From the NCBI RefSeq assembly GCF_030013595.1, contig NZ_CP122771.1: a stretch of DNA of 64,000 bases; one strand, 5' to 3'. The notes under the pieces are model-generated. The model saw only the letters and a list, made by a program, of their open reading frames with translations. It was not told where the DNA came from and made no database searches. The position numbers and the translations under genes are program-made. The DNA is from Escherichia coli (lineage in GTDB: Bacteria; Pseudomonadota; Gammaproteobacteria; Enterobacterales; Enterobacteriaceae). Within the stretch, counting starts at the first letter, position 1; every line of letters starts with the position of its first letter. Below are positions 39,979 to 62,779 of the stretch, piece by piece.

Positions 39979-40014
39979 GAACTGAACTCTGTTAAAGGAC
40001 GCTGTTGCGTCCTT

Positions 40015-41305: not shown

Positions 41306-41337
41306 AGTATGACGGAGACGGGCGGGCAACCGCCCGT

Positions 41338-41687
41338 TTCTTTTCCGGTAAAGGATGTCGCCGTGCTCCTCTTTTTACTGCGCCGGCTGACGCGGCGCGG
41401 CATAAACGCTGCCTGTGGTCAGTGTCCCGCGTCCGGCGGGCACGGGACGGACGCTTTTACCGCTCCCGGCTGGCGTCAGTGACAGTGTACGCCAGCCCGT
41501 CGCCCTTTCTGATGAACGCCCTTCAAGCCGCTTTCGCGGCATAGCCTTGCCGTCAAACAGACGACGGCTGCGGTATTCCACGGTCGGCCTGACCCGTTAC
41601 CGGACGCGGTGAACAGCCCACAGGCCGCGGGGAACGGGCACCACAGGGGTGCCCTCCCGGTGCCCTCTGTAAGAGAAGGAGGCTTTT
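41338..41687 (+). repeat. Leading-region direct repeat family B, copy 2
   Basis: Near-identical to 40015-40378; ends at ATG of methyltransferase gene. Confidence 0.85.
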
Positions 41688-43039: not shown

Positions 43040-43089
43040 TGTTATCGCCGCCTGCCCTGCGGGCGGCGATACAGGGAGAACGCTTAATC

Positions 43090-43869
43090 ATGAACGAAAA
43101 CAGCACGCTGAACGCACTGATTTGTCGTCACGCCCGTAACCTGCTGCTGGCGCAGGGCTGGCCGGAGGAGACGGATGTTGATCAGCGAGATCCACAGAAC
43201 TATCCGGGCTGGATCAGCATTTACGTGCGGCTGGATGCGCCCCGGCTGGCGACGTTACTTATCAACCGTCACGGCGGCGTACTGCCGCCGCTCCTGGCCT
43301 CCGCCATTCAGAGACTGACCGGAACCGGGGCGGAACTGGTACTGTCCGGCAGTCAGTGGCAGTCGCTGCCGGTACTTCCGGCAGACGGAACGCAGGTGTC
43401 TTTCCCGTATGCCGGAGAATGGCTGACCGAAGACGAAATCAGGGCTGTTCTTGATGCGGTGCACGATGCGGTACGAAGCATCTGTTACCAGGTGGCAGAA
43501 GATGCGCGGCGTATCCGTGCGGCGCTGACCACCACCGGTCAGACGTTGCTGACCCGCCAGACGCGCCGCTTTCGCCTGGTCGTGAAGGAAAGCGATCACC
43601 CCTGCTGGCTCGATGAAGATGACGAAAACCTGCCCGTGGTGCTCGATGCCATCGTGAACCGGGGAGCACGTTTTTCGTCGGTGGAAATGTATCTGGTCAG
43701 TGAGTGTATTGAGCATATCCTGTCCAGTGGGCTGGCCTGCGATGTGCTGCGTATACCGGATGAACCGCCCCGCCGCTGGTTTGACCGTGGTGTTCTGCGG
43801 GAAGTTGTCCGGGAAGCCCGGGCCGAAATCCGCAGCATGGCGGATGCCCTGACAAAAATCAGGGGCTGA
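43090..43869 (+). CDS. Hypothetical protein
   Basis: 260-aa ORF from ATG 43090. Confidence 0.5.
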
Positions 43870-44281
43870 TGATGGCGGGGAAAATCCCCGCCTTTTTCCT
43901 GCCGGTCCCCGGACAGAGCACAAAGGAAGTCGCCGCCGGCTCCGCTTTACCCGGCCATGCAGGCATGGCCTTGTGGGTTTTCAGTTATGTGGCCACAGTG
44001 TCGTGTGCGGGCTGTGCCGTGCCTCCATCTTAGCCGGGCTGGCGTTGATGCAAGGGTACGCTTCGCCGCTGCGGTCACCCGGTCCCTCCTTCCCGTCTGC
44101 CGTGATTTTCCGGTCGTTCACCCGCTCAGATTTCGCGGTCTCACCCTCCAACTCCCGCCAGCCGTGTGCGTCAGGCTGCGGCTTCCCTTGCGCCCTGTGC
44201 ATCCCCGCCTTATCGCCCGGCTTTTATGGAGGCACGGCACCGCCCGGTGTCGCGGAATATGTGAACAACGGAGGAAATCCC

Positions 44282-44707
44282 ATGCAGTATGCAAAATCTG
44301 TCATTCTGAACGTTGAAGAGTGCGACCGTCTGTCTTTTCTGCCTTACCTGTTTGGCAACGATTTTCTGTATGCCGAGGCATCTGTGTACGCGCTGGCGAA
44401 AAAAATGATGCCGGAATATGAAGGCGGATTCTGGCACTTCATCCGCCTGCCGGACGGTGGCGGTTACATGATGCCGGATGGCGACCGTTTTCATCTGGTC
44501 AACGGTGAAAACTGGTTTGACCGTACGGTCAGCGCCGATGCCGCAGGCATCATTCTGACCTCCCTTGTGATTAACCGCCAGTTGTGGCTGTACCACGACA
44601 GCGGGGATGCGGGACTGACACACCTGTACCGGATGCGCGATGCGCAGTTGTGGAGCCACATCGAATTTCACCCCGAATGTAACGCGATTTACGCGGCACT
44701 GGACTGA
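44282..44707 (+). CDS. ardB: ArdB/KlcA-like antirestriction protein
   Basis: 141 aa starting [33 protein letters not shown]; recognised as ArdB/KlcA family from memory. Confidence 0.75.
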
Positions 44708-44753
44708 TTAACGGACGGGGCGGCAATGCCGTCCCTGTAAAGGCGACGAGAAC

Positions 44754-45592: not shown

Positions 45593-46165
45593 GCGCACCT
45601 TCGGCTCCCGGCTGCCTGGCGGCATCCGGTCGTCAGGCCCGACTCCGACAGGCAGCTGCTGGCGCACCCGCCAGTCTCCGCCGAACCCGCTGGCGCGGTT
45701 TCGGGCTGTCGCTACGGTCCGATGCGTGAAAACCCCGGGCTTGCAGCGACCGTTCCGGTCGCGCCACCCTTGTCGCGCCGTGGCCTGCGCTCCCGGCATC
45801 CCGGCAAAAGGCCGCCGGGATGTAAGGCGCAACGCCGTTTCGCGCACGCGCTCTCCGTCGTTGCGGCGGGTCCCTGCTCATTGCCTGCCGGGTGCCACAC
45901 ACCCGTATGAGTCCCTGTCGCCGGGGGCTGATACAGCCACAACCTGCCGCACTGACTGTCCAGGGTAAATGAACAGCCCACAAAATTTTTTACCCAAAAC
46001 CCGGTAAAAAATTTTGCGTTCTGCCCGGGACAGGTGCGTCAGGCCGTGGCAGTGATGCCCCTTGCGGCGAAGGTTCTCAAACGGGTGAAGTTCATACCAC
46101 AGGGAATACAGCAGCAGGTTCCCGCGAAACGTCAAAACCGCGGCTCCCGAAACTCAACGGGTGAT
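45593..46165 (+). repeat. Frpo-like leading-region repeat, copy 1 (hairpin 45979-46018)
   Basis: About 570 bp GC-rich unit also at 49012-49465 and 59340-59925; 14-bp perfect stem caaaattttttacc/ggtaaaaaattttg. Confidence 0.8.
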
Positions 46166-46395: not shown

Positions 46396-46626
46396 ATGAC
46401 AGTAAGTATTGTTTCACCTTCCGCAGCGGCTGTAAAGCCCCGCCGTCATCCCCGTTTCAGACGCGAAGACATCCCCGCGCCGGAAATTGACCCCGTGCTG
46501 AAAGCCTTCGGGCGACACATTGCCCGGAGTTTTCACCGGGGGCGTGGTGTACACATCCCCGCCATGAAAAACACGACCTTCGGGCAGGTGCTCCGCACAC
46601 TCGAACTGAAACGCGCTTTTAACTGA
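46396..46626 (+). CDS. Hypothetical small protein
   Basis: 76-aa ORF downstream of Frpo-like copy 1. Confidence 0.4.
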   Translation: MTVSIVSPSAAAVKPRRHPRFRREDIPAPEIDPVLKAFGRHIARSFHRGRGVHIPAMKNTTFGQVLRTLELKRAFN

Positions 46627-46677
46627 TGAGGTGAGCCGCCCCGCGAGGGGCGGCAACAGACGGAAGGAGAACATTTT

Positions 46678-48039
46678 ATGACATTAGCAGCAATCACCAT
46701 GACCGCCCCGGAAGCCGCCAGCCCTGTGCAGATGTACCGCGCGACCTACTCACCGGATGACAACAAACTGCGCCTGTATGCCGTGTCACGTCTTGACCCG
46801 GAGACGTATAAAAAAGTGCATGATGCCGGTTTCCGCTGGGCACCAAAACAGGAGCTGTTTGTCGCGCTAGCCTGGACACCGGGCCGGGAAGACGTGCTCC
46901 TCTCACTTGCCGGAGAGATTGAGGATGAAGACAGCACGCTCGCTGAACGTCAGGAAGCACGGGCGGAGCGGTTTACCGGATACAGCGGAAAGCGGGCCAG
47001 TGAATCCGCACAGGCACTTGATGAAGTGGAAAGACTGGCCGCGATGATCCCGCCCGGTCAGCCCATTCTTGTGGGGCATCACAGCGAACGCCGCACCCGT
47101 CGTGATGCGCAGCGTATTGAAAACGGCATGAAACGAGCAGTGATGCTCTTTGAACGTGCGGAATACTGGGAAGAGCGGGCGCGGTCGGCACGGCTTCACG
47201 CGAAGTATAAAGAACGTCCGGACGTTCGCTGGCGTCGCATCAAAAAAATCGAAGCTGATTTGCGCAAGGCTGAAAAGACCATCGCACAGTCGCAGAAATA
47301 TCTGACGATGTGGCGGGCTGAATCGCTGGATCTGAATATGGCAAAATTCATCAGCAGTTATGACCGTATCAGTGCCTGTTTCCCGCTGGATACGTATCCG
47401 CGCCCGGCAGAAAAAAGCCAGTATGAAGGGAGCCGGTCGTTATGGTCGGCCCTGGATGATGACATCATCACCACGGAGCAGGCCCGCGAAATTGCGATCC
47501 GCTGTCATGAACGGCAGATTCAGCATCAACAACGCTGGGTTAACCACTATCAGAACCGCCTGATCTATGAGCGTACCATGCTGGACGAAAGCGGCGGCGT
47601 GGTTACCCGGACACAGGATTTTGAGCCGGGCGGACAGGTTTTCAGCCGGGGCGAGTGGCTGACCATCATCCGTGTGAACAAAAGCAACGGGGCGGTGAGT
47701 TCAGTCACAACGCCGAATTACAGTTTCCTCGGGTACAGCGGCACGATGAAAGTGACGCCCGATCGCATCACGGACTACAAAGCACCATCGGCAGAAGAGG
47801 CTGCCGTCGCCAGCCAGGCCGCGAAGCGTCCGCCGGTAGTCAACTATCCGGGGGAAGGTTTCCGGGAAATGACAAAGGCACAGTGGGCCGCCCTGCCCCG
47901 GGACTGTAAGGCCGTGCGCAGTGTGGCAGAAGCAGAAGACCACGGGGCATACCGCTACCGCCGCACAATGGACAATAATTTCCGTCTGGTGAATGTGTAT
48001 ATCACCGACATGAAAATTACGGAAATCCCACAGAAATAA
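46678..48039 (+). CDS. Conserved leading-region hypothetical protein
   Basis: 453-aa ORF with GGAGAA RBS. Confidence 0.6.
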   Translation: MTLAAITMTAPEAASPVQMYRATYSPDDNKLRLYAVSRLDPETYKKVHDAGFRWAPKQELFVALAWTPGREDVLLSLAGEIEDEDSTLAERQEARAERFTGYSGKRASESAQALDEVERLAAMIPPGQPILVGHHSERRTRRDAQRIENGMKRAVMLFERAEYWEERARSARLHAKYKERPDVRWRRIKKIEADLRKAEKTIAQSQKYLTMWRAESLDLNMAKFISSYDRISACFPLDTYPRPAEKSQYEGSRSLWSALDDDIITTEQAREIAIRCHERQIQHQQRWVNHYQNRLIYERTMLDESGGVVTRTQDFEPGGQVFSRGEWLTIIRVNKSNGAVSSVTTPNYSFLGYSGTMKVTPDRITDYKAPSAEEAAVASQAAKRPPVVNYPGEGFREMTKAQWAALPRDCKAVRSVAEAEDHGAYRYRRTMDNNFRLVNVYITDMKITEIPQK

Positions 48040-48085
48040 GGTATATCCCCCCGGGAAATCCCCGGGGGATGACGGAGATAATGAC

Positions 48086-48649
48086 ATGCACAGTCAGTTA
48101 AGAGAACGTATCCGGCTGATGCGCGCAAGGCTGGATAACGCCGCGCCGGTTGCTGAAATCCGGGCTGAATCTCAGCTTTTTGTGACTCCTGCCCCGGTCT
48201 GTGATCGCCTGGTGACGCTGGCGGAGATCAGCAACCGTGATCACATTCTGGAACCCTCTGCCGGCACCGGGGCCATACTGCGGGCGATTCGGGATACCGC
48301 GCCGGGGGCCATGTGTGATGCGGTGGAAATCAACAGCGGGCTGGTCCGGTATCTGCGGGAAAATTTTAACGGTGTCAGGGTTCAGTGTGGCGACTTCATG
48401 GAATGGCAGCCGGTGCAGTATTACAGCCGGGTTATCATGAATCCGCCGTTCAGCCACGGGCAGGATATCCGGCATATCCTGCGGGCCTTTTCCCTGTTGC
48501 GTCCGGGTGGCGTGCTGGTCGCCGTCTGTCTCAACGGACCACGCCAGCAGGAGAAGCTGTTGCCGTTTTCTGACGTCCGCGAGGAGCTGCCGCGCGGCAC
48601 GTTTGCTTATACCCGTGTTCCGACGATGATTATTCGTCTGCGGGCCTGA
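48086..48649 (+). CDS. Small orphan N6-adenine DNA methyltransferase-like protein
   Basis: 187 aa; SAM-binding EPSAGTG followed by NPPF catalytic motif. Confidence 0.75.
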   Translation: MHSQLRERIRLMRARLDNAAPVAEIRAESQLFVTPAPVCDRLVTLAEISNRDHILEPSAGTGAILRAIRDTAPGAMCDAVEINSGLVRYLRENFNGVRVQCGDFMEWQPVQYYSRVIMNPPFSHGQDIRHILRAFSLLRPGGVLVAVCLNGPRQQEKLLPFSDVREELPRGTFAYTRVPTMIIRLRA

Positions 48650-48830
48650 AGACGCCGGGCAGGCGGGAGGATAAATGCCTGTCTGTCCGCGCCGGGAAAA
48701 GACCGCGCGCCGGTGGCGCTGAAAGGGGCCGCGCTGACGCGCCGCCCCTTTCATTACGCGGACGTTCTGACGGGGGCTTCTGTCTTTTCAGACCTGTCAT
48801 TTGCCTGTTACTGATGATGTTGTTGTTCCT

Positions 48831-48866
48831 GCTACTGCTACTGCTACTGCTACTGCTACTGCTACT
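48831..48866. repeat. Hexanucleotide microsatellite (gctact)x6
   Basis: Direct reading; related (gtt)x5 run at 45523-45542 in the equivalent position before Frpo-like copy 1. Confidence 0.85.
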
Positions 48867-49011
48867 GTTCTTCTTTTTTCTGATGCTCTCATTACTGTCT
48901 GTTTTGTTGTTCTCCTGCTTATGCCTTTTCCGGGCGTCCCCCTGGCGGGGCGGGCTGTCGTGAACGGAGCCAGCGAAGCTGTCTCCGCCCTGGCGGGCTT
49001 CCATCCCTGAC

Positions 49012-49465
49012 GCCAAACCCCCTGGCTTGCAGCGACCGTTCCGGTCGCGCCGCCTCTGTCGCGCCGTGACCTGCGCTCCCGGCATCCCGGCAAAAGGCCG
49101 CCGGGATGTGAGGGGCAACGCCGTTTCGCGCACGCGCTCTTCGTCGTTGCGGCGGGTGCCTGCCCGTTGTTGTATCCGGTGCCCTGCACCCGTTTAAGCC
49201 CCTGTCGCCGGGGGCAAAGACAGCCACAACCGTCTCCGCCAGTCCAGGGGTGAAATGCACATCCCACAAAAGTTTTTGCCCAAAAGCCGGCAAAAACTTT
49301 TGTGGTCTGCCCCCGGACAGTCGTTTCCGGCCGTGGCAGTGATGCCCCTTGCGGCGAAGGTTCTCAAACGGGTGATGGTTAATACCGGAGGGAACAAACG
49401 GCAGGTCCCCGCAAAACGTCAAAACCGCGGCTCCCGAAACTCAACGGGTGATGGGGGCTGAAAAC
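49012..49465 (+). repeat. Frpo-like leading-region repeat, copy 2 (hairpin 49264-49305), immediately upstream of ssb
   Basis: Perfect 17-bp stem ccacaaaagtttttgcc/ggcaaaaacttttgtgg; unit ends at ssb RBS. Confidence 0.8.
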
Positions 49466-49486: not shown

Positions 49487-50017
49487 ATGGCAGTTCGTGG
49501 AATTAACAAGGTCATTCTTGTCGGTCGCCTGGGAAAAGATCCGGAAGTCCGTTACATCCCCAACGGGGGCGCAGTGGCAAACCTGCAGGTGGCCACGTCA
49601 GAAAGCTGGCGTGACAAACAGACGGGGGAGATGCGGGAGCAGACGGAATGGCATCGCGTGGTGTTGTTCGGCAAGCTCGCGGAAGTGGCTGGTGAATATT
49701 TGCGTAAGGGTGCGCAGGTCTACATCGAGGGGCAACTCCGTACCCGTAGCTGGGACGACAACAACGGCGTCACCCGTTACATCACTGAAATCCTTGTTAA
49801 AAACACGGGCACCATGCAGATGCTGGGACGTGCCGCAGGTACTCAGACTCAGCCGGAAGAGGCGCAACAGTTCAGCGGTCAGCCTCAGCCGGAATCACAG
49901 CCGGAACCGAAAAAAGGTGGCGCGAAAACGAAAGGCCGTGGACGTAAGGCCGCGCAGCCGGAGCCTCAGCAGCCGTCTGAACCCGCGTATGACTTCGATG
50001 ACGACATTCCGTTCTAA
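49487..50017 (+). CDS. ssb: Plasmid single-stranded DNA-binding protein
   Basis: [25 protein letters not shown]-fold N-terminus; Gly/Gln/Pro-rich tail ending DDDIPF. Confidence 0.95.
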
Positions 50018-50066
50018 CGAAAGACAGTGACAACCGCCCCGTCCAGTGCGGGGCATCACCGGAGAT

Positions 50067-50306
50067 ATGAGGATGAGCGAATATTTCAGAATATTTCAGG
50101 GGCTGCCTGACGGCTCCTTTACCCGCGAACAGGCTGAAGCCGTTGCCGCACAGTACCGGAATGTCTTTATCGAGGATGATCAGGGAACGCATTTTCGCCT
50201 GGTTGTCCGCAATAACAGTGGCCTGGTCTGGCGTACCTGGAATTTTGAGGACGGTGCCGGGTACTGGATGAACCATGTCATCCGGAATTTCGGCATTCTT
50301 AAGTAA
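50067..50306 (+). CDS. Hypothetical small protein
   Basis: About 80-aa ORF downstream of ssb; start approximate. Confidence 0.5.
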
Positions 50307-50369
50307 GAGAGGTGCCGGACGGGAACGCGTCCGGCAGACATACAACCATCCCGGTCAAAGGAGAAATAT

Positions 50370-52328
50370 ATGTCAGTTACAGAGTCTAAGACAAAAACGG
50401 AGCGTAAATCCAGCCGTAAACCTGCAAAAACGCAGGAAACAGTCCTGTCTGCCCTGCTGGCGCAGACGGAGGAAGTGAGCGTGCCGCTGGCCTCACTGAT
50501 TAAATCACCGCTGAATGTGCGCACGGTGCCGTATTCTGCGGAGTCCGTCAGCGAACTGGCGGACTCCATTAAAGGTGTCGGCCTGTTACAGAATCTGGTT
50601 GTTCATGCCCTGCCAGGTGACCGTTACGGTGTCGCCGCAGGCGGTCGCCGACTGGCAGCACTCAACATGCTGGCAGAGCGCAACATCCTTCCGGCTGACT
50701 GGCCTGTACGCGTGAAGGTCATTCCGCAGGAGCTGGCGACTGCCGCATCGATGACCGAGAACGGTCAGCGTCGGGATATGCACCCTGCCGAACAGATTGC
50801 CGGATTCCGCGCAATGGCGCAGGAAGGCAAAACACCTGCACAAATCGGTGATTTGCTGGGCTATTCACCCCGCCACGTTCAGCGAATGCTGAAACTGGCT
50901 GACCTTGCGCCTGTCATCCTCGATGCGCTGGCAGAAGACCGCATCACCACCGAACACTGTCAGGCGCTGGCGCTGGAGAACGACACCGCGCGTCAGGTGC
51001 AGGTGTTTGAAGCCGCCTGTCAGTCGGGATGGGGCGGTAAACCGGAAGTACAGACCATTCGTCGTCTGGTGACCGAAAGTGAAGTGGCGGTGGCGGGGAA
51101 CAGTAAATTCCGCTTCGTGGGGGCTGATGCCTTCTCGCCAGACGAACTGCGCACCGATTTGTTCAGCGACGACGAAGGTGGCTATGTGGACTGCGTGGCG
51201 CTCGATGCCGCCCTGCTGGAAAAACTCCAGGCTGTCGCAGAGTTCCTTCGGGAAGCCGAAGGCTGGGAATGGTGCGCCGGACGCATGGAGCCTGTCGGTG
51301 AGTGCCGTGAGGATGCCGGAACATACCGCTGTCTGCCGGAGCCGGAAGCGGTGCTGACGGAGGCGGAAGAAGAACGTCTGAACGAACTGATGACGCGTTA
51401 CGACGCGCCGGAAAACCAGTGTGAGGAATCTGACCTGCTGGAAGCAGAAATGAAGCTGATGCGCTGCATGGCGAAGGTCAGGGCGTGGACGCCGGAGATG
51501 CGTGCCGGAGGTGGAGTGGTGGTGTCCTGGCGTTATGGCAACGTGTGTGTCCAGCGTGGTGTGCAGTTGCGCAGTGAGGATGACGTGGCTGACGACGCTG
51601 ACCGTACGGAACAGGTGCAGGAGAAAGCGTCAGTGGAGGAAATCAGTCTGCCACTGCTGACGAAAATGTCTTCCGAACGCACGCTGGCAGTCCAGGCAGC
51701 ACTGATGCAGCAACCGGACAAATCTCTGGCACTGCTGGCATGGACGCTCTGCCTGAATGTGTTTGGCAGCGGAGCGTACAGTAAACCAGCACAAATCAGC
51801 CTGGAATGTAAACATTATTCGCTGACCAGCGATGCGCCATCGGGGAAGGAAGGTGCCGCATTCATGGCGCTGATGGCAGAAAAAGCCCGTCTTGCTGCCC
51901 TGTTACCGGAGGGATGGTCACGGGACATGACGACATTCCTGTCACTCAGTCAGGAGGTGCTGTTATCCCTGCTCAGTTTCTGCACCGCATGCAGCCTTAA
52001 CGGTGTCCAGACCCGTGAGTGTGGTCACACGTCACGCAGTCCGCTTGACACGCTGGAAACCGCCATCGGCTTTCACATGCGAGACTGGTGGCAGCCGACA
52101 AAAGCAAACTTCTTCGGACACCTGAAAAAGCCGCAGATTATCGCAGCCCTGAATGATGCCGGACTGTCCGGTGCCGCACGGGATGCAGAGAAGATGAAGA
52201 AAGGTGATGCGGCTGAACATGCAGAGCACCATATGAAAGACAACCGCTGGGTGCCTGGCTGGATGTGTGCACCACGTCCACAGACGGATACCACTGAACG
52301 CACCGATAACCTGGCTGATGCCGCCTGA
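50370..52328 (+). CDS. ParB-like nuclease domain protein
   Basis: 652 aa; N-terminal ParB/Srx-like box (VHALPGDRYGVAAGGRRLAAL). Confidence 0.8.
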   Translation: MSVTESKTKTERKSSRKPAKTQETVLSALLAQTEEVSVPLASLIKSPLNVRTVPYSAESVSELADSIKGVGLLQNLVVHALPGDRYGVAAGGRRLAALNMLAERNILPADWPVRVKVIPQELATAASMTENGQRRDMHPAEQIAGFRAMAQEGKTPAQIGDLLGYSPRHVQRMLKLADLAPVILDALAEDRITTEHCQALALENDTARQVQVFEAACQSGWGGKPEVQTIRRLVTESEVAVAGNSKFRFVGADAFSPDELRTDLFSDDEGGYVDCVALDAALLEKLQAVAEFLREAEGWEWCAGRMEPVGECREDAGTYRCLPEPEAVLTEAEEERLNELMTRYDAPENQCEESDLLEAEMKLMRCMAKVRAWTPEMRAGGGVVVSWRYGNVCVQRGVQLRSEDDVADDADRTEQVQEKASVEEISLPLLTKMSSERTLAVQAALMQQPDKSLALLAWTLCLNVFGSGAYSKPAQISLECKHYSLTSDAPSGKEGAAFMALMAEKARLAALLPEGWSRDMTTFLSLSQEVLLSLLSFCTACSLNGVQTRECGHTSRSPLDTLETAIGFHMRDWWQPTKANFFGHLKKPQIIAALNDAGLSGAARDAEKMKKGDAAEHAEHHMKDNRWVPGWMCAPRPQTDTTERTDNLADAA

Positions 52329-52382
52329 TGAACAACCACACCGCCCCGCCGGAGACGGGGCGGCAGCAAGGGAGATACCGTG

Positions 52383-52817
52383 ATGAAAACTGAACTGACC
52401 CTGAATGTATTACAGACCATGAGTGCACAGGAATATGAAGATATCCGGGCAGCCGGAAGTGATGAACGTCGTGAGCTGACACACGCCGTGATGCGGGAAC
52501 TGGATGCGCCGGACAACTGGACGATGAACGGCGAGTACGGCAGCGAGTTCGGCGGCTTTTTCCCCGTCCAGGTCCGCTTCACGCCTGCCCACGAACGTTT
52601 TCACCTGGCGTTATGTTCACCGGGCGATGTCTCTCAGGTCTGGGTGCTGGTTCTGGTGAATGCCGGTGGTGAGCCGTTTGCGGTGGTTCAGGTGCAGCGG
52701 CGGTTTGTACCGGAAGCTGTCAGCCATTCACTGGCACTGGCGGCGTCACTGGATGGGCAGGGGTACAGCGTTAACGACATCATCCATATCCTGATGGCGG
52801 AAGGAGGTCAGGCATGA
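52383..52817 (+). CDS. psiB: PsiB, plasmid SOS inhibition protein
   Basis: Starts [13 protein letters not shown], matching F PsiB. Confidence 0.9.
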
Positions 52818-53533
52818 GCGCACGTTCACAGGCACTGGTTCCCCTCAGCGCAGAGCAACAGGCCGCATGGCGGGCGGTGGCGGAGACGGAAAAACGCCGC
52901 CATCAGGGAAACTCGCTGGCGGAATATCCGTATGCGGGGGCGTTTTTCCGCTGTCTGAACGGAAGCCGCAGGATATCGCTGTCTGACCTGCGATTTTTCA
53001 TGCCGTCCCTGACCGCAGAAGAACTGCACGGCAACCGTCTTCAGTGGCTGTATGCCATCGATGTGCTGATTGAAACACAGGGCGAGGTCTGCCTCCTTCC
53101 CCTTCCCGGTGATGCAGCAGAGCGGCTGTTCCCGTCGGTGCGGTTCCGTGTCAGGGAACGCAGTCGCCATAAATCCGCGCTGGTCATGCAGAAGTACAGC
53201 CGCCAGCAGGCACGGGAGGCAGAGCAGAAAGCCCGTGCGTACCAGGCGCTGGTTGCTCAGGCTGAAATCGAACTGGCATTCCATTCGCCGGAGACGGTCG
53301 GAAGCTGGCATGCCCGCTGGAGTGACCGGGTGGCGGAGCATGACCTGGAAACGCTGTTCTGGCAGTGGGGTGAGCGTTTTCCGTCACTGGCCGGAATGGA
53401 ACGCTGGCAGTGGCAGGATATGCCGTTCTGGCAGGTCATCGCAGAGGCTGGTATGGCGGCAAGGGTGGTCGGTCATGCTGTTCGTGAGATGGAGCGGTGG
53501 ATGGTGCCGAACAAACTCCGGGAGGCAGCGTGA
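52814..53533 (+). CDS. psiA: PsiA
   Basis: 239-aa ORF overlapping psiB stop; matches F PsiA. Confidence 0.9.
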
Positions 53534-53566
53534 TGCGTAAGCGGCTCGCCAGAACCGTATTGATAT

Positions 53567-55138
53567 TTACTGAGAGGTCAGATCAACTTTCCAGGGCAAC
53601 AGATCGCGTACCCGGTTTGCCGGCCAATCCTGGATATGCTCAATGACGTAACGCAGCCATTTTTCTGGTTCCACATTGTTCAGACGGCATGTGCCGATCA
53701 GCGAGTACAACACCGCCGCATGTTCGCCACCGCTGTCGGAACCCGCGAAGAGCCAGTTTTTCCGGCCTACGGCCACTCCCCGTAAGGCGTTCTCTGCGAT
53801 GTTGTTGTCGATTTCCACCCAGCCATTACTGCAGTACACGTTCAGGGCCTCCCACTGTTTCAGCAGGTATGCGAACGCTTTTGCCGTATCCGAGTGACGC
53901 GACAGTGTTTTCATCTGTTCCTGTATCCAGTCATACAGTGACTGCATCAGTGGAGCCGCTCTGGCTTTTCTTGCTGCCAGACGCTGTTCTGCTGAACATC
54001 CCCGGACTTCTGCCTCGATGACATACAGTTCACCGATACGCTGCAGGGCTTCCGTGGTGATGTCGGTTGGCACTCTTGCATGCACATCGTGGATTTTTCT
54101 CCGGGCATGGGCCATACACGCGGCTTCCGTTATTCTGCCGGATTCGTATAACGCCCGGTAACCACCGTAAGCATCTGCCTGAAGCACACCGCTGTAACCG
54201 GCCAGGTGATTCTGTGGATGGATACCTTTCCGGTCCGGGCTGTACGCGAACCAGACCGCCGGGGGCATCTGTGAACCGGCGTTACGGTCATCACGGACAT
54301 AGACCCACAGCCGGGCAGTTCTTGTTTTACCACTGCCCGGCTCCTGGACCGGAACGGGGATATCATCCGCATGGACTTTACCGGGCATCAGCACATACTG
54401 GCGCAGCACGTCATACAGCGGCTCCAGCAGTTCAGCAACGGCACCGGTCCAGCGCCCCAGCGTGGCGCGGCTCAGTTCCACGCCCTGACGAAGGTATATT
54501 TCTGACTGGCGGTATAACGGCAGATGGTCTGCATACTTCCCGGTGACGATATGAGCCAGAAGCCCCGCTCCGGCATAACTGCGTGCAATGGGTTTTGAAG
54601 GTACTGGTGCCTGCACGATATGGTCGCACCGGCAACAGGCCAGTTTCGGACGTTGTGTTTCGATAACCTTAAAAGCGCTGCTGATAAGCTCCAGTTGCTC
54701 TGACACATCACACCCCAGAGGACTGAGGTCACCACCACAGGCCGGGCAGCATTCCTCTTCCGGCCGGATGACCCGGGTTTCACGGGGAAGTGAGGCCGGT
54801 AACGGCTTACGGGCTGAAGACTGGCGCAGGGCGGATGGCAGTACCGGGTCATATTGCTCATCCAGCGTTTCCGCCATTTCTTCCTGAAGTGCGCTGATTC
54901 GCTCCTGGGCTTCCTGTATCTGCCGTTCGGTTTTAGCGCGAAGTTTTTCTGAGCTTTTACCGAACTGCATGCGCTGCAGTTTCGCAACCAGCGCCTTCAG
55001 CCGGTTGATTTCGGAAGCATAAGCCGCCACCCGCTGTGAGAGCAGGCGGTTGTATTTCGCCATCTGGCGGATGGTGTCCTGTTGCGTCTGCAACAGTGCC
55101 CGCAGGCGGGCATTCTCATGAGCAAGTGAGGTGTCCAT
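53567..55138 (-). CDS. IS66-family transposase (OrfC)
   Basis: 523 aa with N-terminal coiled coil, CxxC...CxxC zinc motif and DDE-type core. Confidence 0.9.
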
Positions 55139-55157
55139 ATCCTCACTTTACAACGGG

Positions 55158-55505
55158 TTATATGCGGATGCCAGCGCGTTCCGTTCGTTTCGGGTGCTTC
55201 CAGTCGATGCCTTCGAGAAGCATGGACAACTGAGCCGGAGTAAGGTGAACCTTTCCATCGCGGGTGACCGGCCAGACGAAGCGGCCCCGCTCCAGGCGTT
55301 TGGTGAAGAGGCACAGTCCGTCACTGTCAGCCCACAGCACTTTTATCTGGTCACCCCGGCGTCCGCGGAAGATGAACAGATGCCCGGAGAACGGGTCATC
55401 CTTCAGGACGTTCTGAACTTTTGAGGCCAGGCCGTTAAAGCCATTTCGCATATCGGTGATACCGGCAACCAGCCAGATACGCGAACCGGCAGGGAGAGAT
55501 ATCAT
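55158..55505 (-). CDS. IS66 OrfB (TnpB-like accessory protein)
   Basis: 115-aa ORF with the conserved IS66 OrfB-like N-terminus. Confidence 0.85.
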   Translation of the reverse strand: MISLPAGSRIWLVAGITDMRNGFNGLASKVQNVLKDDPFSGHLFIFRGRRGDQIKVLWADSDGLCLFTKRLERGRFVWPVTRDGKVHLTPAQLSMLLEGIDWKHPKRTERAGIRI

Positions 55506-56155
55506 CAGTGGCTGCTCCCTTTCATTTCGCGGATAAGTGTCTGTAATAACGCCGGTGTCAGTTCACCTTTCAGCCTGAGAGTTCCGGCCGGCAGAACCAG
55601 CTCGCAGCACAGACTGTCTGGCAGTGTATTTATCTGTTCAGGTATCTGCACTGGTGCCGGGATTTTATTATCCGGCTCCGGAGTTAACGTCACGGGAAGT
55701 AGCGATGTTTCATGTTCGCCGGGCGGTTGCAGGCCACCGTTACGCCAGAGATGCCGCCAGTTAAAGAGCAGGTTATCGTTAATTCCATTCTCTCGAGCTA
55801 TTTGTGCGACACAAGCACCGGGTAAAAGAGTTTGCTGAACCAGTCTCCATTTAAACTCCGGTGAAAATCGGTTCCGGCGGGGTTTCTCTGCTTTCACAGG
55901 CTGAGTCACGGTCGGGGCTGAAGGGTATCGCCCCGGGAAAAGAGCCCGGGCCAGTTGCCCGCAGGAATATTCACCGGAAAGAGGCCAGTCAGTGAATACC
56001 TGGTGAAATCGCCTCACCAGAGAAAAAATGGCGGTTTTGCTGACACCGGTCTGCGCAGAAATGCGCGGGTACGACAGTGACTCGTCAAATCTCAGCTGTA
56101 GCACACGCAGGATCAATTCCGGATTGTCTGCCAGTACCGCTTTTCGTGCATTCAT
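55505..56155 (-). CDS. IS66 OrfA-like HTH protein
   Basis: 216-aa ORF start-overlapping orfB; longer than typical OrfA. Confidence 0.7.
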   Translation of the reverse strand: MNARKAVLADNPELILRVLQLRFDESLSYPRISAQTGVSKTAIFSLVRRFHQVFTDWPLSGEYSCGQLARALFPGRYPSAPTVTQPVKAEKPRRNRFSPEFKWRLVQQTLLPGACVAQIARENGINDNLLFNWRHLWRNGGLQPPGEHETSLLPVTLTPEPDNKIPAPVQIPEQINTLPDSLCCELVLPAGTLRLKGELTPALLQTLIREMKGSSH

Positions 56156-56444
56156 CTTAAATGTCCCTTTACTGCGAAAATGGACATTAGTATCGGAAAC
56201 AGGAAAGGGAGGCGAAAGACGGTTTAAATGAGACGGTTACCGTGATGCGGCAACAATCACATGGATTTCCCGTGAACGGTCTGAATGAGCGGATTATTTT
56301 CAGGGAAAGTGAGTGTGGTCAGCGTGCAGGTATATGGGCTATGATGTGCCCGGCGCTTGAGGCTTTCTGCCTCATGACGTGAAGGTGGTTTGTTGCCGTG
56401 TTGTGTGGCAGAAAGAAGATAGCCCCGTAGTAAGTTAATTTTCA

Positions 56445-56510
56445 TTAACCACCACGAGGCATCCCTATGTCTAGTCCACATCAGGATAGCCTCTTACCGC
56501 GCTTTGCGCA
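56445..56510 (-). ncRNA. sok: Sok-like antisense RNA region (approximate)
   Basis: Position antisense to mok/hok leader directly upstream of hok. Confidence 0.3.
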
Positions 56511-56524
56511 AGGAGAAGAAGGCC

Positions 56525-56683
56525 ATGAAACTACCACGAAGTTCCCTTGTCTGGTGTGTGTTGATCGTGTGTCTCACACTGTTGATATTCACTTATCTGA
56601 CACGAAAATCGCTGTGCGAGATTCGTTACAGAGACGGACACAGGGAGGTGGCGGCTTTCATGGCTTACGAATCCGGTAAGTAG
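56525..56683 (+). CDS. hok: Hok/FlmA type I toxin
   Basis: 52-aa peptide [52 protein letters not shown] read directly (below ORF-track length cutoff); overlapping mok-like frame 56467-56679. Confidence 0.85.
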
Positions 56684-56994: not shown

Positions 56995-59339
56995 GGGTCG
57001 GGTAGCAGCGGCACATTGCTGCGCCGCCGCCCCCTAAGAACGGAGCGTGCGAGTTTTCCCGCACTCCGCTCAAGCCTTTATAAGTGCTTTCGGTGAGCAC
57101 CGGCTTCCCTGCTGTGTAACTGTCGGTGGCAGTTCGGATGTAACAACTCGAGATTGGTCAGTTCGTCACTGCCGCCCATAACTTTCCTGATCCGGTGATG
57201 TATATTCCATCCGGTCTGGTTGGTTATGAGTTGTCCGCACTGCGGACAGTGTTTCCCCTGCCTCTTCCAGAGTTGAACTACTGTCTTCATCTTCTTTGAT
57301 TTGCCTTTCCAGATTAGATCCAGACGACGTTCAAAGTAGATTTCCATTCCGGGGGTGTATGGTGTTGCTTCGCCTTTGATTTTTATATGGCGCTTTATCG
57401 GTGTTTCCATTGCCCGGAAGAGTGTCAGAATTTTCCCTTCCGGGGTTATGGCTTTAAAGATCCAGCGCCTGCCTTCAAAGGAGAAGTATCGTCCGGCGAT
57501 CCACCGCAATCCTTTCCGGGGATGCCGTCTTACACACCATCGCCATATAGCTCGCCAGATTTGGGTGTCGACATAATTAAATGTTTCTTTCGCCACGACG
57601 TGTCGGTGATAGGTAGCCCATCCCCGGATCACCGGGTTTAGCTGGCCTATCAGTTTCCATGCCGGGAGCGTCGGATTGCGTTTAATTATTTCTCTGACTT
57701 TACAGAGGAAGTTCTTCAGGTTTTTCTTCGACGGTTTAATCAGCATTTTACCGTTGTACTTCCTGACGTTCTGCCCTAAAAAGTCGAAGCCTTTATCTAT
57801 ATGTGTGATCGCTGTTTTTTCTTCCGACAGTTCCAGCCCTCGTTCGCGCATGAAAGCTGCAATCAGTGGTCTGACCTCATTTTCCAGCAATTCACGGGAG
57901 CTGCCTGAACAGATGAAATCATCAGCATATCTCACATAATTCACCTGGTGCTTTGCACTGTGATAACCACTTTTCCTGAACGTTTGCATCAGTTCCTTCT
58001 CCAGTCCGTCCAGAGCCATGTTGGCGAGAACAGGGGATATGATGCCTCCCTGCGGTGTCCCGCTGTTCGTATGGTTAAACACGCCTCTTTCCATGTAACC
58101 TGCTTTCAACCATTTTTTAAGCAGTCTCCTGTCCATCGGAATATGGGAAAGCAGCCAGTCATGGCTGATGTTATCGAAACACCCTTTAATATCGCCCTCC
58201 AGTATCCATTTGGGCGATACTTTCTGGCTCATCCGCAGAAAAATGGACTCAATGGCGTCATGCGTGCTGCGCATTGGTCTGAAACCATAGCTGTTATGGT
58301 CAGCAGTGGTCTCGGATACGGGTTCCAGAGCCAGCAGCCACAGTGCCTGCATGGCCCGGTCCCTCATTGTGGGTATGCCCAGCGGTCGCGTTTTGCCGTT
58401 TGATTTTGGGATATGTATTCGCCGTAGTGGCTGTGGCCTGTAACCACACAGATTCAGGCTGCATATTCCTTCCCATTTCTCCTTCGGTGTGTGCCATATT
58501 TTTCCGTCAATACCGGGTGTCCTTTTACCGGTATTTTCAGTTACACGCCTGACAGCCACGGCTTTGCCGGAGAATGAGCGGGTGAGGATGCGCTGTAGTT
58601 CTCTGACCTGCCGCCATTGTTGCTGTCGGGTTGCCTTTGCAATCCGTAACTGTAGCTTTCGCACCCGGGCATGGCATGCTTTCCAGTTTATGGTGTGCCA
58701 GCCTGTCGGGTGGGGTATCGTGGACACACTGATGTGTGTATTCATCTCGCTGATATCCTTTTGACTGCTTTACAGCTTTTCATGCAATTAAAGACCAGAC
58801 GGAAGTCTGCCCGCTTTCGCGTCGGGGAACCTGCCCCGTATCCCGGTTATTACGGCCGGGCATTCGCTTTTTCCGTCCTCCTATGCCCGCACCGCTAACA
58901 GTGTTCCTTGCGGTTCACCTGCCTGTGAGGCAGCGATACGGGTTTACCAGGTTCCGCTTAACATACAGAGGGTCAGGGCGGGTTCTGTCTCTTCACCGGG
59001 GGTCTCTGCGCCCATGTGCTCCCTGTGCGCGAGGTAGCAACCGGACCCCGTACCTTTTGGTTCAGGCCTGTCAGCATCTTTGGCCTGTTGCCGATAACGG
59101 TGTTTATCAACAGTTCACATGTGTTAACCCTTCTGACCAGCCTTGCTCTCCTGCCGCATGATGCTTGCAGCAAGGTAAAGCCCCTCACGGGGCTTTACCC
59201 GGGCTGACGCCCGGCTCTCGTTGTCCCGGGAGCTTCAGACCCCGCCGTTGCCGGCAACGCCTGTCCCGGTAGGCTACAGCTAATGGGATAGCTGGTTTTA
59301 TCAATGTAAAACAATACGTTAAGCGACTTCCTGTCGCAC
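56995..59339 (-). mobile_element. Group II intron, boundaries +/-10 bp
   Basis: 5' end GTGCGACAGG on minus strand; domain V-like hairpin GAGCGGAGTGCGGGAAAACTCGCACGCTCCGTTC near 3' end (+ coords about 57030-57063); encodes RT/maturase/HNH ORF. Confidence 0.8.
57078..58745 (-). CDS. Group II intron-encoded reverse transcriptase/maturase with HNH endonuclease
   Basis: 555 aa; RT motifs incl. YADD (VRYADDFIC); C-terminal CPQCG...H..H HNH. Confidence 0.9.
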   Translation of the reverse strand: MNTHISVSTIPHPTGWHTINWKACHARVRKLQLRIAKATRQQQWRQVRELQRILTRSFSGKAVAVRRVTENTGKRTPGIDGKIWHTPKEKWEGICSLNLCGYRPQPLRRIHIPKSNGKTRPLGIPTMRDRAMQALWLLALEPVSETTADHNSYGFRPMRSTHDAIESIFLRMSQKVSPKWILEGDIKGCFDNISHDWLLSHIPMDRRLLKKWLKAGYMERGVFNHTNSGTPQGGIISPVLANMALDGLEKELMQTFRKSGYHSAKHQVNYVRYADDFICSGSSRELLENEVRPLIAAFMRERGLELSEEKTAITHIDKGFDFLGQNVRKYNGKMLIKPSKKNLKNFLCKVREIIKRNPTLPAWKLIGQLNPVIRGWATYHRHVVAKETFNYVDTQIWRAIWRWCVRRHPRKGLRWIAGRYFSFEGRRWIFKAITPEGKILTLFRAMETPIKRHIKIKGEATPYTPGMEIYFERRLDLIWKGKSKKMKTVVQLWKRQGKHCPQCGQLITNQTGWNIHHRIRKVMGGSDELTNLELLHPNCHRQLHSREAGAHRKHL

Positions 59340-59925
59340 GCGCACCTTCGGCTCCCGGCTGCCTGGCGGCATCCGGTCGTCAGGCCCGACTCCGACAGGC
59401 AGCTGCTGGCGCACCTGCCAGTCTCCGCCGAACCCGCTGGCGCGGTTTCGGGCTGTCGCTACGGTCCGATGCGTGAAAACCCCGGGCTTGCAGCGACCGT
59501 TCCGGTCGCGCCGCCTCTGTCGCGCCGTGGCCTGCGCTCCCGGCATCCCGGCAAAAGGCCGCCGGGATGTAAGGCGCAACGCCGTTTCGCAAACCGCGCT
59601 TCACGTCGTTGCGGCGGGTCCCTGCCCGTTGTTGTGTCCGGTGCCATTCACCTGTTTAAGCCCCTGTCGCCGGGGGCATAGACAGCCACAACCGTCTCCG
59701 CCAGTCCAGGGGTGAAATGCACATCCCGCAAAACTTTTTGCCCAGAAGCAGGCAAAAACTTTTGCGGTCTGCCCCCGGACAGTCGTTTCCGGCCGTGGCA
59801 GTGATGCCCCATGCGGCGAAGGTTCTCAAACAGGTGATGGTGAATACCGGAGGGAACAAAAGGCAGGTCCCCGCAAAACGTCAAAACCGCGGCTCCCGAA
59901 ACTCAACAGATGATGGGGGCTGAAA
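59340..59925 (+). repeat. Frpo-like leading-region repeat, copy 3 (hairpin 59726-59767)
   Basis: Stem ccgcaaaactttttgcc/ggcaaaaacttttgcgg; unit ends at RBS of 59948 ORF. Confidence 0.8.
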
Positions 59926-59947: not shown

Positions 59948-60235
59948 ATGAGTACCCGAAATATCCACGTTAACACCGCGTCGTACACGCTTCTTGTTGC
60001 CGGGAAGAAAAAAAACACCGGGGAAGAGTGGGACGTCCTGGAATTCAGCAGCCTGACTGAGCTGAAAAAATATCGCAAAAGCCACCCGGAAAAGATGGCC
60101 TTCAGTTATAGCTACGCGCTCAGTCAGGGTGTGGATAAGCAGTTCCGCCATATCAACATTGCGGAAGCCGATCACTTCAAACAGTTCCTGCGTCAGATTA
60201 AGCGTGCCGGCCTCGATATCCGGGCGATCTGCTGA
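59948..60235 (+). CDS. Hypothetical small protein
   Basis: 95-aa ORF with GAGGAG RBS immediately after Frpo-like copy 3. Confidence 0.5.
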   Translation: MSTRNIHVNTASYTLLVAGKKKNTGEEWDVLEFSSLTELKKYRKSHPEKMAFSYSYALSQGVDKQFRHINIAEADHFKQFLRQIKRAGLDIRAIC

Positions 60236-60352
60236 CCGGATGTGATGAATACCCCTCCTGATTGTTGCAATCTTGTTAATGGAGATCGGGGGGATGATAT
60301 TAAGCGGAAAAATTTTTTATTAAATTTATTCTTTCATAAAGGAGTAGCTGTT

Positions 60353-61174
60353 ATGCGATTAGCTTCCCGTTTTGGTCGGTATAATTCCATCCGCCGTGAA
60401 CGTCCTTTAACGGATGATGAATTAATGCAGTTCGTGCCTTCGGTATTTTCCGGTGATAAACATGAGTCCCGGAGTGAACGTTATACGTATATTCCAACAA
60501 TCAATATCATCAATAAGTTACGTGATGAAGGTTTCCAGCCATTCTTTGCCTGTCAGAGTCGGGTTCGTGATTTGGGACGTCGCGAATACAGTAAACATAT
60601 GTTACGTCTTCGCAGGGAAGGGCATATTAACGGACAGGAAGTTCCTGAAATTATCCTGCTTAATTCACATGATGGTTCATCCAGTTATCAGATGATCCCC
60701 GGAATTTTTCGTTTTGTCTGCACAAATGGCCTGGTGTGCGGAAATAATTTTGGCGAAATCCGCGTTCCACATAAAGGTGATATTGTCGGGCAGGTTATCG
60801 AGGGAGCGTATGAAGTGCTCGGTGTCTTTGATAAGGTCACTGATAATATGGAGGCGATGAAAGAAATTCATCTTAACAGTGACGAGCAACATTTATTTGG
60901 CAGAGCTGCACTGATGGTCAGGTATGAAGATGAAAATAAAACGCCAGTGACACCTGAACAGATAATTACTCCCCGTCGTCGGGAAGACAAACAGAACGAT
61001 CTCTGGACAACCTGGCAGCGGGTTCAGGAGAATATGATAAAAGGTGGATTATCGGGGCGAAGTGCCTCCGGGAAAAATACCAGGACAAGAGCCATTACAG
61101 GTATTGATGGTGATATAAGAATCAACAAGGCGTTATGGGTGATTGCCGAACAGTTCAGAAAGTGGAAGTCATGA
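60353..61174 (+). CDS. Conserved leading-region hypothetical protein
   Basis: 273 aa from ATG 60353 with AAGGAG RBS. Confidence 0.55.
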   Translation: MRLASRFGRYNSIRRERPLTDDELMQFVPSVFSGDKHESRSERYTYIPTINIINKLRDEGFQPFFACQSRVRDLGRREYSKHMLRLRREGHINGQEVPEIILLNSHDGSSSYQMIPGIFRFVCTNGLVCGNNFGEIRVPHKGDIVGQVIEGAYEVLGVFDKVTDNMEAMKEIHLNSDEQHLFGRAALMVRYEDENKTPVTPEQIITPRRREDKQNDLWTTWQRVQENMIKGGLSGRSASGKNTRTRAITGIDGDIRINKALWVIAEQFRKWKS

Positions 61175-61214: not shown

Positions 61215-61470
61215 TTATATTATCATTTTTCGGCATTGCTGTGTCGTCTGATATACCTCAATTTCATCGACCGGCTTTCCGGTTGTCTGTAAATATTGTG
61301 CCCGCGAAAAATGGTCTGGCAGGAGGCTGCGCAGTTACCGGGTATATATAAGATGGGTTCCCGCTTCGCGGGGCTTCGGCCAGTCAGTATTGTCACTCAT
61401 ATGATATTTTTGTGTGTGGCCTTCCATGCCGCTTTTGCGGCATAACCGGTATCTGACAATGTCTGTAAGA

Positions 61471-61983
61471 TTAATTGTTCTGCACGCTGTTAATTTCCGG
61501 AAGTGATTTCTTCGTGGCCGGAAGCCGGATACCTTTACTGCTTTTTATCCCGGTATAAATCCGGTAAACCTCTGATGCGTAGGCAAGACGTCTCTGGTTC
61601 TGGCGTTCGGATTTCCTGAATCCTGCATTGTATGCACCAACGGCCTCCCAGGTGACGCCCCATTTTTTAAATGCTATTGCCAGATAATAAGCACCGGTAT
61701 AAATGTTCATGCAGGGATCTGTTGTCAGATGTTCCGGCTTAATTCCATAGCGGGCCAGTTCGTTAAAATGCTGGGAATCTACCTGCATCAGTCCGCTGCC
61801 ATATCCCGTTACCGGATTAATACCGATGGCATTAACCCGGTAACGGGATTCTTTCCATGATATTGCTCTCAGTAAATCAGGATCTATTTTGTAATCCCGG
61901 CCTGCAAGATCAAAGCAATCAGTGGCATGGCAGATCTCATTTATAAACATCAGGCAGATGGCTAACATCCATTTTTTCATTTT
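61471..61983 (-). CDS. Gene X / orf169 lytic transglycosylase
   Basis: 170 aa from [12 protein letters not shown]; signal peptide; adjacent to oriT as in F. Confidence 0.85.
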
Positions 61984-61989
61984 TCCACC

Positions 61990-62390
61990 TCTGGTGACTT
62001 TATCCGTAAATAATTTAACCCACTCCACAAAAAGGCTCAACAGGTTGGTGGTTCTCACCACCAAAAGCACCACACACTACGCAAAAACAAGTTTTTGCTG
62101 ATTTGCCTTTTAAATCATGTAATTAACAAATGCTATTTATATTTAATAATTCTGAATTATTAAATAGAGAGTCGTTGGCGATCCTGTTACGACCCTATAG
62201 CGACCCTTATTAGGATCAGTACTGACAATTTTCATGAAAAACATTGATATATATTAGGGGCGCCACTAGCGCCGGATCGCATTTTTTTATAGGATGATCC
62301 TAGAGGCGCTGCTAGGAGTGTCTTTCTTACTTGTAAACACTATATGCATATTTATAGTGAAAAGTTCATTGCTTAATTATGAAAGGTTTT
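61990..62390. promoter_or_regulatory. oriT (origin of transfer) with nic region about 62060-62080 on the minus strand
   Basis: Reverse complement of 62030-62082 reads GTAGTGTGTGGTGCTTTTGGTGGTGAGAACCACCAACCTGTTGAGCCTTTTTGTGGAGTGGG, near-identical to the F/R100 nic region as remembered. Confidence 0.8.
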
Positions 62391-62395
62391 ATCTT

Positions 62396-62779
62396 ATGGC
62401 CAGAGTAATTTTGTATATCAGTAATGATGTCTATGACAAAGTAAATGCGATAGTTGAACAGCGTCGTCAGGAGGGGGCAAGAGATAAAGATATAAGTGTT
62501 TCGGGAACAGCTTCAATGCTTCTTGAACTGGGGCTTCGCGTACATCAGGCTCAGATGGAGCGTAAAGAGTCTGCATTTAATCAGACTGAGTTTAATAAAT
62601 TACTTCTTGAATGTGTTGTAAAAACACAGTCATCAGTAGCGAAAATTTTGGGTATTGAGTCTCTAAGTCCCCATGTCTCCGGGAATCCAAAGTTTGAATA
62701 TGCCAATATGGTTGAAGATATTCGTGAGAAGGTGTCATCTGAGATGGAACGATTTTTTCCAAAAAATGATGAGGAATAA
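62396..62779 (+). CDS. traM: TraM, relaxosome accessory protein
   Basis: 127 aa starting MARVILYISNDVYDKVNAIVEQRRQEGA. Confidence 0.9.
   Translation: MARVILYISNDVYDKVNAIVEQRRQEGARDKDISVSGTASMLLELGLRVHQAQMERKESAFNQTEFNKLLLECVVKTQSSVAKILGIESLSPHVSGNPKFEYANMVEDIREKVSSEMERFFPKNDEE

Follow-up and report, generated by a model that had tools for sequence, protein, structure and literature searches.

Transfer Polarity and Putative Single-Stranded DNA Promoters in the Leading Region of an R100-Type, F-Like IncFII Plasmid of Escherichia coli

Introduction

The interval between gene X and traM in contig NZ_CP122771.1 of Escherichia coli (NCBI RefSeq assembly GCF_030013595.1) raises the question of which DNA strand is nicked there, and whether the strand that would enter a recipient first is also the template for the genes of the adjoining leading region. 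We addressed this question in a stretch of 64,000 nucleotides (the window, given 5' to 3' as the + strand) by comparing its oriT, relaxase, gene order, and hairpin-forming sequences with those of characterised conjugative plasmids.

The model against which the locus can be read comes from several plasmids. Frpo of F was described as a single-stranded DNA (ssDNA) promoter (Masai and Arai, 1997; reviewed in PMC7690428), and both Frpo1 and Frpo2 are needed for early expression in F (PMC9849209). Across thousands of elements, anti-defence, SSB, methylase, and toxin-antitoxin genes of the leading region are oriented for transcription from the transferred strand (T-strand), and inversion of a Frpo-acrIIA4 cassette in F weakened its anti-CRISPR benefit (PMC11541004). 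RNA sequencing early after mating, together with 5' RACE, defined class 1 to class 3 ssDNA promoters in pESBL and F (PMC12672017), the class 2/3 examples being the klcA/ardA and M.EcoGIX promoters of pESBL and ssp2 and ssp3 of F. In F and pESBL, genes have been shown to be expressed from ssDNA promoters ahead of complementary-strand synthesis (PMC9849209; PMC11541004; PMC12672017), and priming and roadblock roles have been reported for leading-region hairpins (bioRxiv 10.64898/2026.01.09.698686).

The polarity and ssDNA-expression model, including the strand-specific RNA sequencing early after mating that a preliminary description of this DNA proposed as a check, is already known, and the window departs from F only in detail: nic and TraI of R100 type, one more Frpo copy together with an extra operon, an IncFII replicon, and two insertions. 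The underlying biology, early expression of anti-defence, SSB, and anti-SOS functions from the incoming strand, is important and is established for F, ColIb-P9/pESBL, and thousands of plasmids. The value of the present analysis is one of annotation, as it gives the transferred strand, the likely nick, the order of gene entry, and the locations of putative ssDNA promoters for this plasmid.

The Plasmid and Its Layout

The window holds almost the whole of an F-like IncFII/MOBF plasmid, opened inside the tra operon. Its oriT interval is matched by more than 4,000 enterobacterial plasmids, mostly of conjugative MOBF/MPF_F types, with E. coli plasmid NZ_CP122686.1 as the top match at 100% identity. 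This plasmid, from E. coli ETEC4067, is 99-100% identical over most of the window and lacks both of the mobile elements described below, so that it supplies their empty sites; a second relative, NZ_CP119742.1 (pE94-2), shares the IS66 and intron insertions in identical orientation. The annotated CDS of NZ_CP122686.1, mapped onto the window, give the following layout:

2.3-30 kb: traV to traX, and finO
33.5-35 kb: IncFII replicon, with copB, CopA RNA, tap, and repA
38.6-40 kb: parM/stbB
40-62 kb: leading region, about 22 kb
61981..62395, no strand assigned: oriT intergenic region, flanked by gene X (ATG at 61980, -) and traM (62396, +)
62396..62779, + strand: traM, which opens the lagging side of oriT, the side transferred last
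Right end of the window: oriT, then traM, traJ (with its 5' UTR and FinP), and traY

Two matches were noted in the surroundings of the replicon. About 0.85 kb downstream of repA, at 35790-35818 (-), lies a match to F ssiE (30 nt, 87%) that may be a G-site-type priming signal of the IncFII origin. An Rfam 'sok' match at 32971-33127 (+) lies on the same strand as the adjacent hok gene.

The oriT Interval, nic, and the Cognate Relaxase

On its minus strand the interval carries the nic motif 5'-CTTGTTTTTGCGTAGTGTGT^GGTGCTTTTGGTGGTGAGAACCACC-3'; across 62100-62041 this strand reads 5'-CAGCAAAAACTTGTTTTTGCGTAGTGTGTGGTGCTTTTGGTGGTGAGAACCACCAACCTG-3'. The nic 36-mer (62047-62082, -) has one exact occurrence in the 64 kb, with none expected in shuffles, and a degenerate F/R100 19-mer, allowed up to three mismatches, found the same minus-strand site as its sole match in the window. 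The preliminary description had put a nic-region motif on the minus strand near 62060-62080, and the unique 36-mer agrees with this placement, the nick position that it implies, 62072/62071, falling inside that range.

Published substrates give the motif its meaning. The nic of F is TTTGCGTGGGGTGT^GGTGCTTT (PMC2504302), the 5' half-site of R100 is GCAAAAACTTGTTTTTGCGTAGTGTGT, and the 3' oriT 30-mer of F is GGTGCTTTTGGTGGTGAGAACCACCAACCT (PMC3074121); the minus strand of the window equals the R100 half-site and the F 30-mer joined end to end. A cleaved-substrate pattern drawn from the same two papers, TTTGCGT[A/G]G[T/G]GTGT^GGTGCTTT, has an exact match at 62064-62085 (-) that is unique in the window. 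We infer that the scissile bond lies between T62072 and G62071 of the minus strand, a position taken from experiments on F and R100. The features around it are:

62071..62072, - strand: probable nic, ...GTAGTGTGT(62072)^G(62071)GTGC..., whose 5' end at 62071 would lead into the recipient
62064..62082, - strand: R100-type ssDNA recognition core of the TraI relaxase, GCGTAGTGTGTGGTGCTTT
62081..62098, - strand: inverted repeat 5' of nic, GCAAAAAC-TT-GTTTTTGC, the "hairpin" of published TraI joining substrates
62045..62064, - strand: inverted repeat 3' of nic, TTGGTGGT-GAGA-ACCACCAA, predicted to be the first structured DNA to enter
23372..28642, + strand: traI relaxase/helicase, with Y16/Y17 and residues L2, D153, R193, and Q201

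From the gene X start through nic, about 140 bp of F (NC_002483) are the same as in the window except for two core bases, GCGTGGGGTGT in F versus GCGTAGTGTGT in the window; the F core reads GCGTGGGGTGTGGTGCTTT. The traM-proximal half of the window oriT, the presumed region of TraY, TraM, and IHF sites, has in contrast diverged from F; CTAGCAGCGCC-type motifs and an AT-rich palindrome are conserved with F.

The published substitutions that swap TraI specificity from F to R100 are M2L/E153D/Q193R/R201Q (PMC3245843). TraI of the window has the R100 residue at all four positions (L2, D153, R193, and Q201), and the relaxase therefore agrees with the type of nic, both being of R100 type and unlike those of F. 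The likeness to R100 (NR1) was judged on these residues and on the oligonucleotide 5' half-site, which is the same in R100 and the window. On sequence grounds, we read this region as the oriT of a conjugative plasmid that is F-like (IncFII, MOBF, R100-type).

TraI stays on the 5' phosphate after cleavage, and that end is transferred first (PMC9849209). With TraI bound to the 5' end and nic on the minus strand, the minus strand is the one transferred and the template for + genes. Gene order, running from the leading region through gene X and oriT to traM, is as in F, and the gene X ATG (61980) stands 91 nt from nic. The sequence thus supports the minus strand as the transferred strand, its 5' end leading, with gene X and after it the leading region following. 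This is the route that the preliminary description had proposed, and three independent lines uphold it: the match to the R100/F half-sites, the F-like gene order, and the strand of the Frpo/ssiD homologues described below.

Putative ssDNA Promoters in the Leading Region

The leading region contains three copies of a repeat of about 550 nt, at 45.6-46.2, 48.9-49.5, and 59.3-59.9 kb. Each copy contains a minus-strand homologue of F ssiD, the sequence characterised as Frpo, for which the query was taken from the supplement of PMC11541004, and each homologue has + strand genes downstream:

59570..59919, - strand: Frpo/ssiD-type class 1 promoter homologue, copy 3 (the equivalent of F Frpo1), 96% to F ssiD
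59948..61174, + strand: orf95 (ygeA-like, 59948-60235) and DUF932 (orf273/ygeB-like, 60353-61174), downstream of copy 3
49111..49457, - strand: Frpo/ssiD-type class 1 promoter homologue, copy 2, 92% to F ssiD
49487..53533, + strand: operon of ssb, DUF905 (yfjA), ParB-like (yfjB), psiB, and psiA, downstream of copy 2
45823..46155, - strand: Frpo/ssiD-type class 1 promoter homologue, copy 1, matching F ssiD at 78% and the F Frpo2 construct at 92%
46396..48963, + strand: operon of a hypothetical gene, DUF3560, a SAM methyltransferase, and a hypothetical gene, downstream of copy 1
61288..61476, - strand: homologue of F ssiE, a single-strand initiation sequence, 98% identity

When the three copies were folded as minus-strand ssDNA, each formed a long imperfect hairpin, with predicted energies of -109.1 kcal/mol for copy 3 (z = -10.4), -104.5 kcal/mol for copy 2 (z = -8.1), and -132.7 kcal/mol for copy 1 (z = -7.9), and 0 of 100 shuffles folded as well. 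Between the end of each copy and the start codon of the gene that follows (hyp/DUF3560, ssb, and orf95, all +) are 25-240 nt. The Frpo2-acrIIA4 construct of published experiments, in sense orientation, matches the + strand, and its alignment stops at the ssb ATG. Within the hairpins, a consensus scan for sigma-70 -35/-10 hexamers returned 0 sites and a strict scan none, and the best matches of a relaxed scan were 7-9/12, with no clearly conserved pair. Promoter activity confined to the single-stranded form is documented for the F and pESBL homologues (PMC9849209; PMC12672017), and by homology and predicted folding the three copies here are candidate promoters of this kind. The suggestion in the preliminary description that the entering strand is the template for the + strand genes, consistent with ssDNA promoters, fits well with Frpo/ssiD homologues on the minus strand and a sense Frpo2 construct on the +.

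An Rfam match to the antisense RNA AS-pc01, described from pHK01, lies at 46302-46401 (-), between copy 1 and the operon's first ORF, where it overlaps the region in which an ssDNA-promoter transcript would begin.

Three further intergenic hairpins precede + strand genes nearer the maintenance end of the leading region:

43865..44285, - strand: long ssDNA hairpin that precedes the antirestriction gene (44282-44707), z = -4.2, in the class 2/ssp2 position
41306..41690, - strand: long ssDNA hairpin that precedes the DNA methylase gene (41688-42371), z = -5.4, in the class 3/ssp3 position
39985..40405, - strand: hairpin, second copy of a repeat, upstream of the DUF1281 gene (40403-41305), z = -5.6

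The ssp2 and ssp3 assignments of these hairpins were made by position. The last two share a repeat of about 335 nt that is 93-96% identical between the copies, and from sequence this pair looks like a duplicated class 3-type ssDNA promoter. F has one match to the repeat (96.7%), which covers the coordinates of the copy at 39985-40405. The window from 40362 to 45514, as a whole, is 94% identical to the corresponding F segment. When the leading region was folded as ssDNA in sliding windows of 300 nt, the Frpo copies and the ssp3-like hairpin were among the most structured windows, as were ssiE, the 5' end of the intron, part of gene X, and oriT; the ssp2-like hairpin (43865-44285) was absent from the top windows of this sliding fold and was visible only in a dedicated fold.

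The same arrangement is found in F (NC_002483). Over about 14 kb the two leading regions are 92-94% identical, and the order and orientation of Frpo1/Frpo2, ygfA/gene X, ssb, psiB, psiA, and flm are shared, including the opposite-strand gene X; as in F, it is the transferred strand that carries the counterparts of Frpo/ssiD and ssiE. The window differs in having an inserted IS66 element and group II intron, in its IncFII replicon, which, unlike that of F, comes without a RepFIA adjoining the leading region, and in having three Frpo-type copies rather than two. F is without a 3.4-kb segment of the window (45514-48911: hyp, DUF3560, SAM methyltransferase, and hyp), a difference that looks to be a deletion on the F side, through recombination of two Frpo copies. 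The F junction at this segment falls inside Frpo-type repeats. F Frpo2 is most similar (92%) to copy 1 of the window, and not to the copy preceding ssb.

A similar set of hairpins is known from a more distant system. The IncI1 plasmids ColIb-P9 and pESBL (ssi1-3) have, like the window, class 1 hairpins together with hairpins at antirestriction and methylase genes, all of them and their operons being oriented for transcription from the transferred strand, and the three class 1-type hairpins of the window, with those before its antirestriction and methylase genes, repeat this pattern. The central part of ColIb Frpo1 is 76-78% identical to copies 2 and 3, with only the hairpin core alignable. ColIb-P9 and pESBL have a different relaxase family, oriT, and transfer system, and transcription start sites have been mapped in pESBL.

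Gene Orientation and Alternative Explanations

Between 39982 and 61980, 20 of the 21 non-mobile protein genes lie on the + strand, and the F-like leading gene set (ssb, psiB, psiA, antirestriction, methylase, and hok/flm) is complete between oriT and the maintenance region. Pfam finds SSB, PsiB, PsiA, Antirestrict, N6_N4_Mtase, and HOK_GEF domains in + strand genes and SLT in one of the opposite strand:

+ strand: DUF1281, DNA methylase, antirestriction gene, DUF1380, DUF3560, and SAM methyltransferase
+ strand, continued: ssb, DUF905, ParB-like, psiB, psiA, hok, orf95, DUF932, and several small ORFs
61471..61980, - strand: gene X (orf169, ygfA), a 169-aa SLT lytic transglycosylase, predicted to be the first gene to enter

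Gene X has the sense of the transferred strand itself and so would not be transcribed from the incoming single strand; in F, the T-strand does not serve as template for its homologue ygfA, which is made only after double-strand conversion (PMC9849209). F orf169 shares the 169-aa start (ATG 61980), ahead of which stands a GGTGG ribosome-binding site. A 200-aa model of gene X annotated by PGAP in close relatives, starting at GTG 62073, was rejected, as it would span nic and the inverted repeat.

The claim of the preliminary description that oriT polarity matches the orientation of every leading-region gene holds for 20 of the 21, gene X being the exception on the minus strand; that description had the strand simply pass through gene X, which is itself the first of the leading genes. 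It had correctly read two mobile elements on the minus strand, identified here as an IS66-family element (53538-56240) and a group II intron (56997-59339); that these are the only minus-strand features of the leading region proved incorrect, as gene X and the AS-pc01 match are on that strand as well.

Several observations bear on how much the shared orientation says about transcription from ssDNA. First, it may be a generic property of the F-like backbone, its long operons all co-oriented with a unidirectional IncFII replication fork and carrying nothing specific to ssDNA transcription, an explanation that we consider somewhat unlikely. Replication of R1/R100 leaves oriR in the direction of repA transcription, and repA is on the + strand of the window. 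In the rest of the window, 41 of the 44 mapped CDS are on the + strand and 3 on the minus strand, against 20 of 21 in the leading region (Fisher p = 1.0), and about 93-95% of all CDS in the window are on the + strand. The GC skew stays positive nearly throughout, falling only at the two minus-strand mobile elements: of the 4-kb bins, the one exception is 56-60 kb, the site of the minus-strand intron and IS66. A binomial test of 20/21 against 50:50 was set aside as meaningless, the genes being in operons and the plasmid background already 93% +. Because the whole plasmid is co-oriented, co-orientation is weak evidence for the ssDNA-transcription model. Generic co-orientation nonetheless leaves unexplained the three Frpo/ssiD homologues and three other hairpins precisely upstream of operons, as well as the published loss of function when a Frpo-driven gene was inverted or moved to the lagging region (PMC11541004). 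The generic and ssDNA-transcription explanations are not mutually exclusive.

Second, the Frpo/ssi hairpins could be mainly priming sites or replication roadblocks rather than mRNA promoters, with gene orientation incidental; we regard this as unlikely. F ssiD and ssiE were isolated as single-strand initiation sequences, and homologues of both lie on the transferred strand of this plasmid. Frpo RNA primes DNA synthesis in vitro (PMC7690428), and in vivo ssp1/Frpo transcripts prime conversion while ssp2 stalls it (bioRxiv 10.64898/2026.01.09.698686). Deletion of Frpo1 or Frpo2 in F, however, abolishes early production of the downstream proteins (PMC9849209), and start sites from 5' RACE agree with the predicted ssDNA promoters (PMC12672017). 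Promoter and priming/roadblock roles are both documented and are compatible.

Finally, a nick on the + strand or elsewhere, with the tra genes leading and the "leading region" trailing, has a negligible probability, given a nic motif that occurs once in the window, on the minus strand only, and is base for base the R100/F cleavage substrate, together with the cognate TraI residues and the F-like gene order around oriT.

Proposed Order of Entry and Early Transcription

We favor the reading in which an F-like oriT is nicked on the minus strand and hairpins on the incoming strand drive early transcription of the + leading genes, and we consider it very probably correct. The motif and its strand, the gene order and orientation, the homology and predicted folding of the hairpins, and the match between relaxase and nic come from this analysis. 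In the proposed sequence of events, TraI would nick the minus strand between 62072 and 62071 and remain attached to the 5' end at 62071, and the nicked strand would be unwound and threaded 5'-first into the recipient, coordinates falling from that end. The nic-adjacent inverted repeat would enter first, followed by gene X, ssiE, and the rest of the approximately 22-kb leading region. The incoming strand would template the + genes and would fold locally into the three Frpo/ssiD-type hairpins and the three other hairpins, each upstream of a + operon. Host RNA polymerase could then transcribe ssb, psiB/psiA, the antirestriction gene, the methylases, and orf95 with DUF932 before the complementary strand is made, a step whose occurrence and timing we draw from experiments on F, R100, and pESBL. 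Gene X, the IS66 transposase genes, and the intron gene ltrA, all of the opposite sense, would have to wait for conversion to double-stranded DNA.

Mobile Elements in the Leading Region

The two insertions, together with the hok gene that lies between them, are:

53538..56240, - strand: IS66-family element (tnpA, tnpB, tnpC), with an 8-bp target duplication CGTGATGC
56558..56683, + strand: hok/flmA-type toxin gene, with an Rfam 'sok' model match at 56351-56527
56997..59339, - strand: group II intron (GTGCG...CCCGAC), with Rfam matches to D1-D4 and D5-D6

The IS66-family transposase has IS66 domains, and the element is inserted 4 nt past the psiA stop codon, as judged against the empty site of NZ_CP122686.1. 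The intron encodes LtrA (57078-58745), with RVT_N, RVT_1, GIIM, and HNH domains (reverse transcriptase, maturase, and HNH). Together the two elements lengthen the stretch between Frpo copies 3 and 2 by 5,046 nt. The IS66 insertion lies inside the Frpo2-type unit, between psiA and hok/flm; it could truncate this unit and so deprive hok/flmC of early transcription driven from ssDNA.

In the two elements alike, the genes run in the sense of the transferred strand and would consequently be untranscribable from the incoming strand. A rule by which insertions in the leading region are tolerated, or for the intron targeted, only when the element's genes have this sense seems quite unlikely to us; if it were true, the genes of these elements would be silent on the incoming single strand and would not be read in sense by Frpo-driven transcription. 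Besides the orientation of both elements, this reading draws on the recurrent intron junction and the empty paralogous site described below.

Near hok, the Rfam 'sok' matches were considered as a minus-strand Sok/FlmB antisense RNA and rejected, as they lie on the same strand as hok and the model appears to capture the hok leader. A hypothetical minus-strand CDS annotated in a relative (56257-56445) overlaps the hok leader.

The group II intron is located in the repeat upstream of Frpo copy 3, and its exon-intron junction is found in about 1010 PLSDB plasmids. An unoccupied paralogue of its homing site lies 13.7 kb off, at 45557-45633 (-), also within the leading region; the two are 97% identical and differ exactly at +1/+2 (GGTGCGC followed by CCGG versus GGTGCGC followed by AGG).
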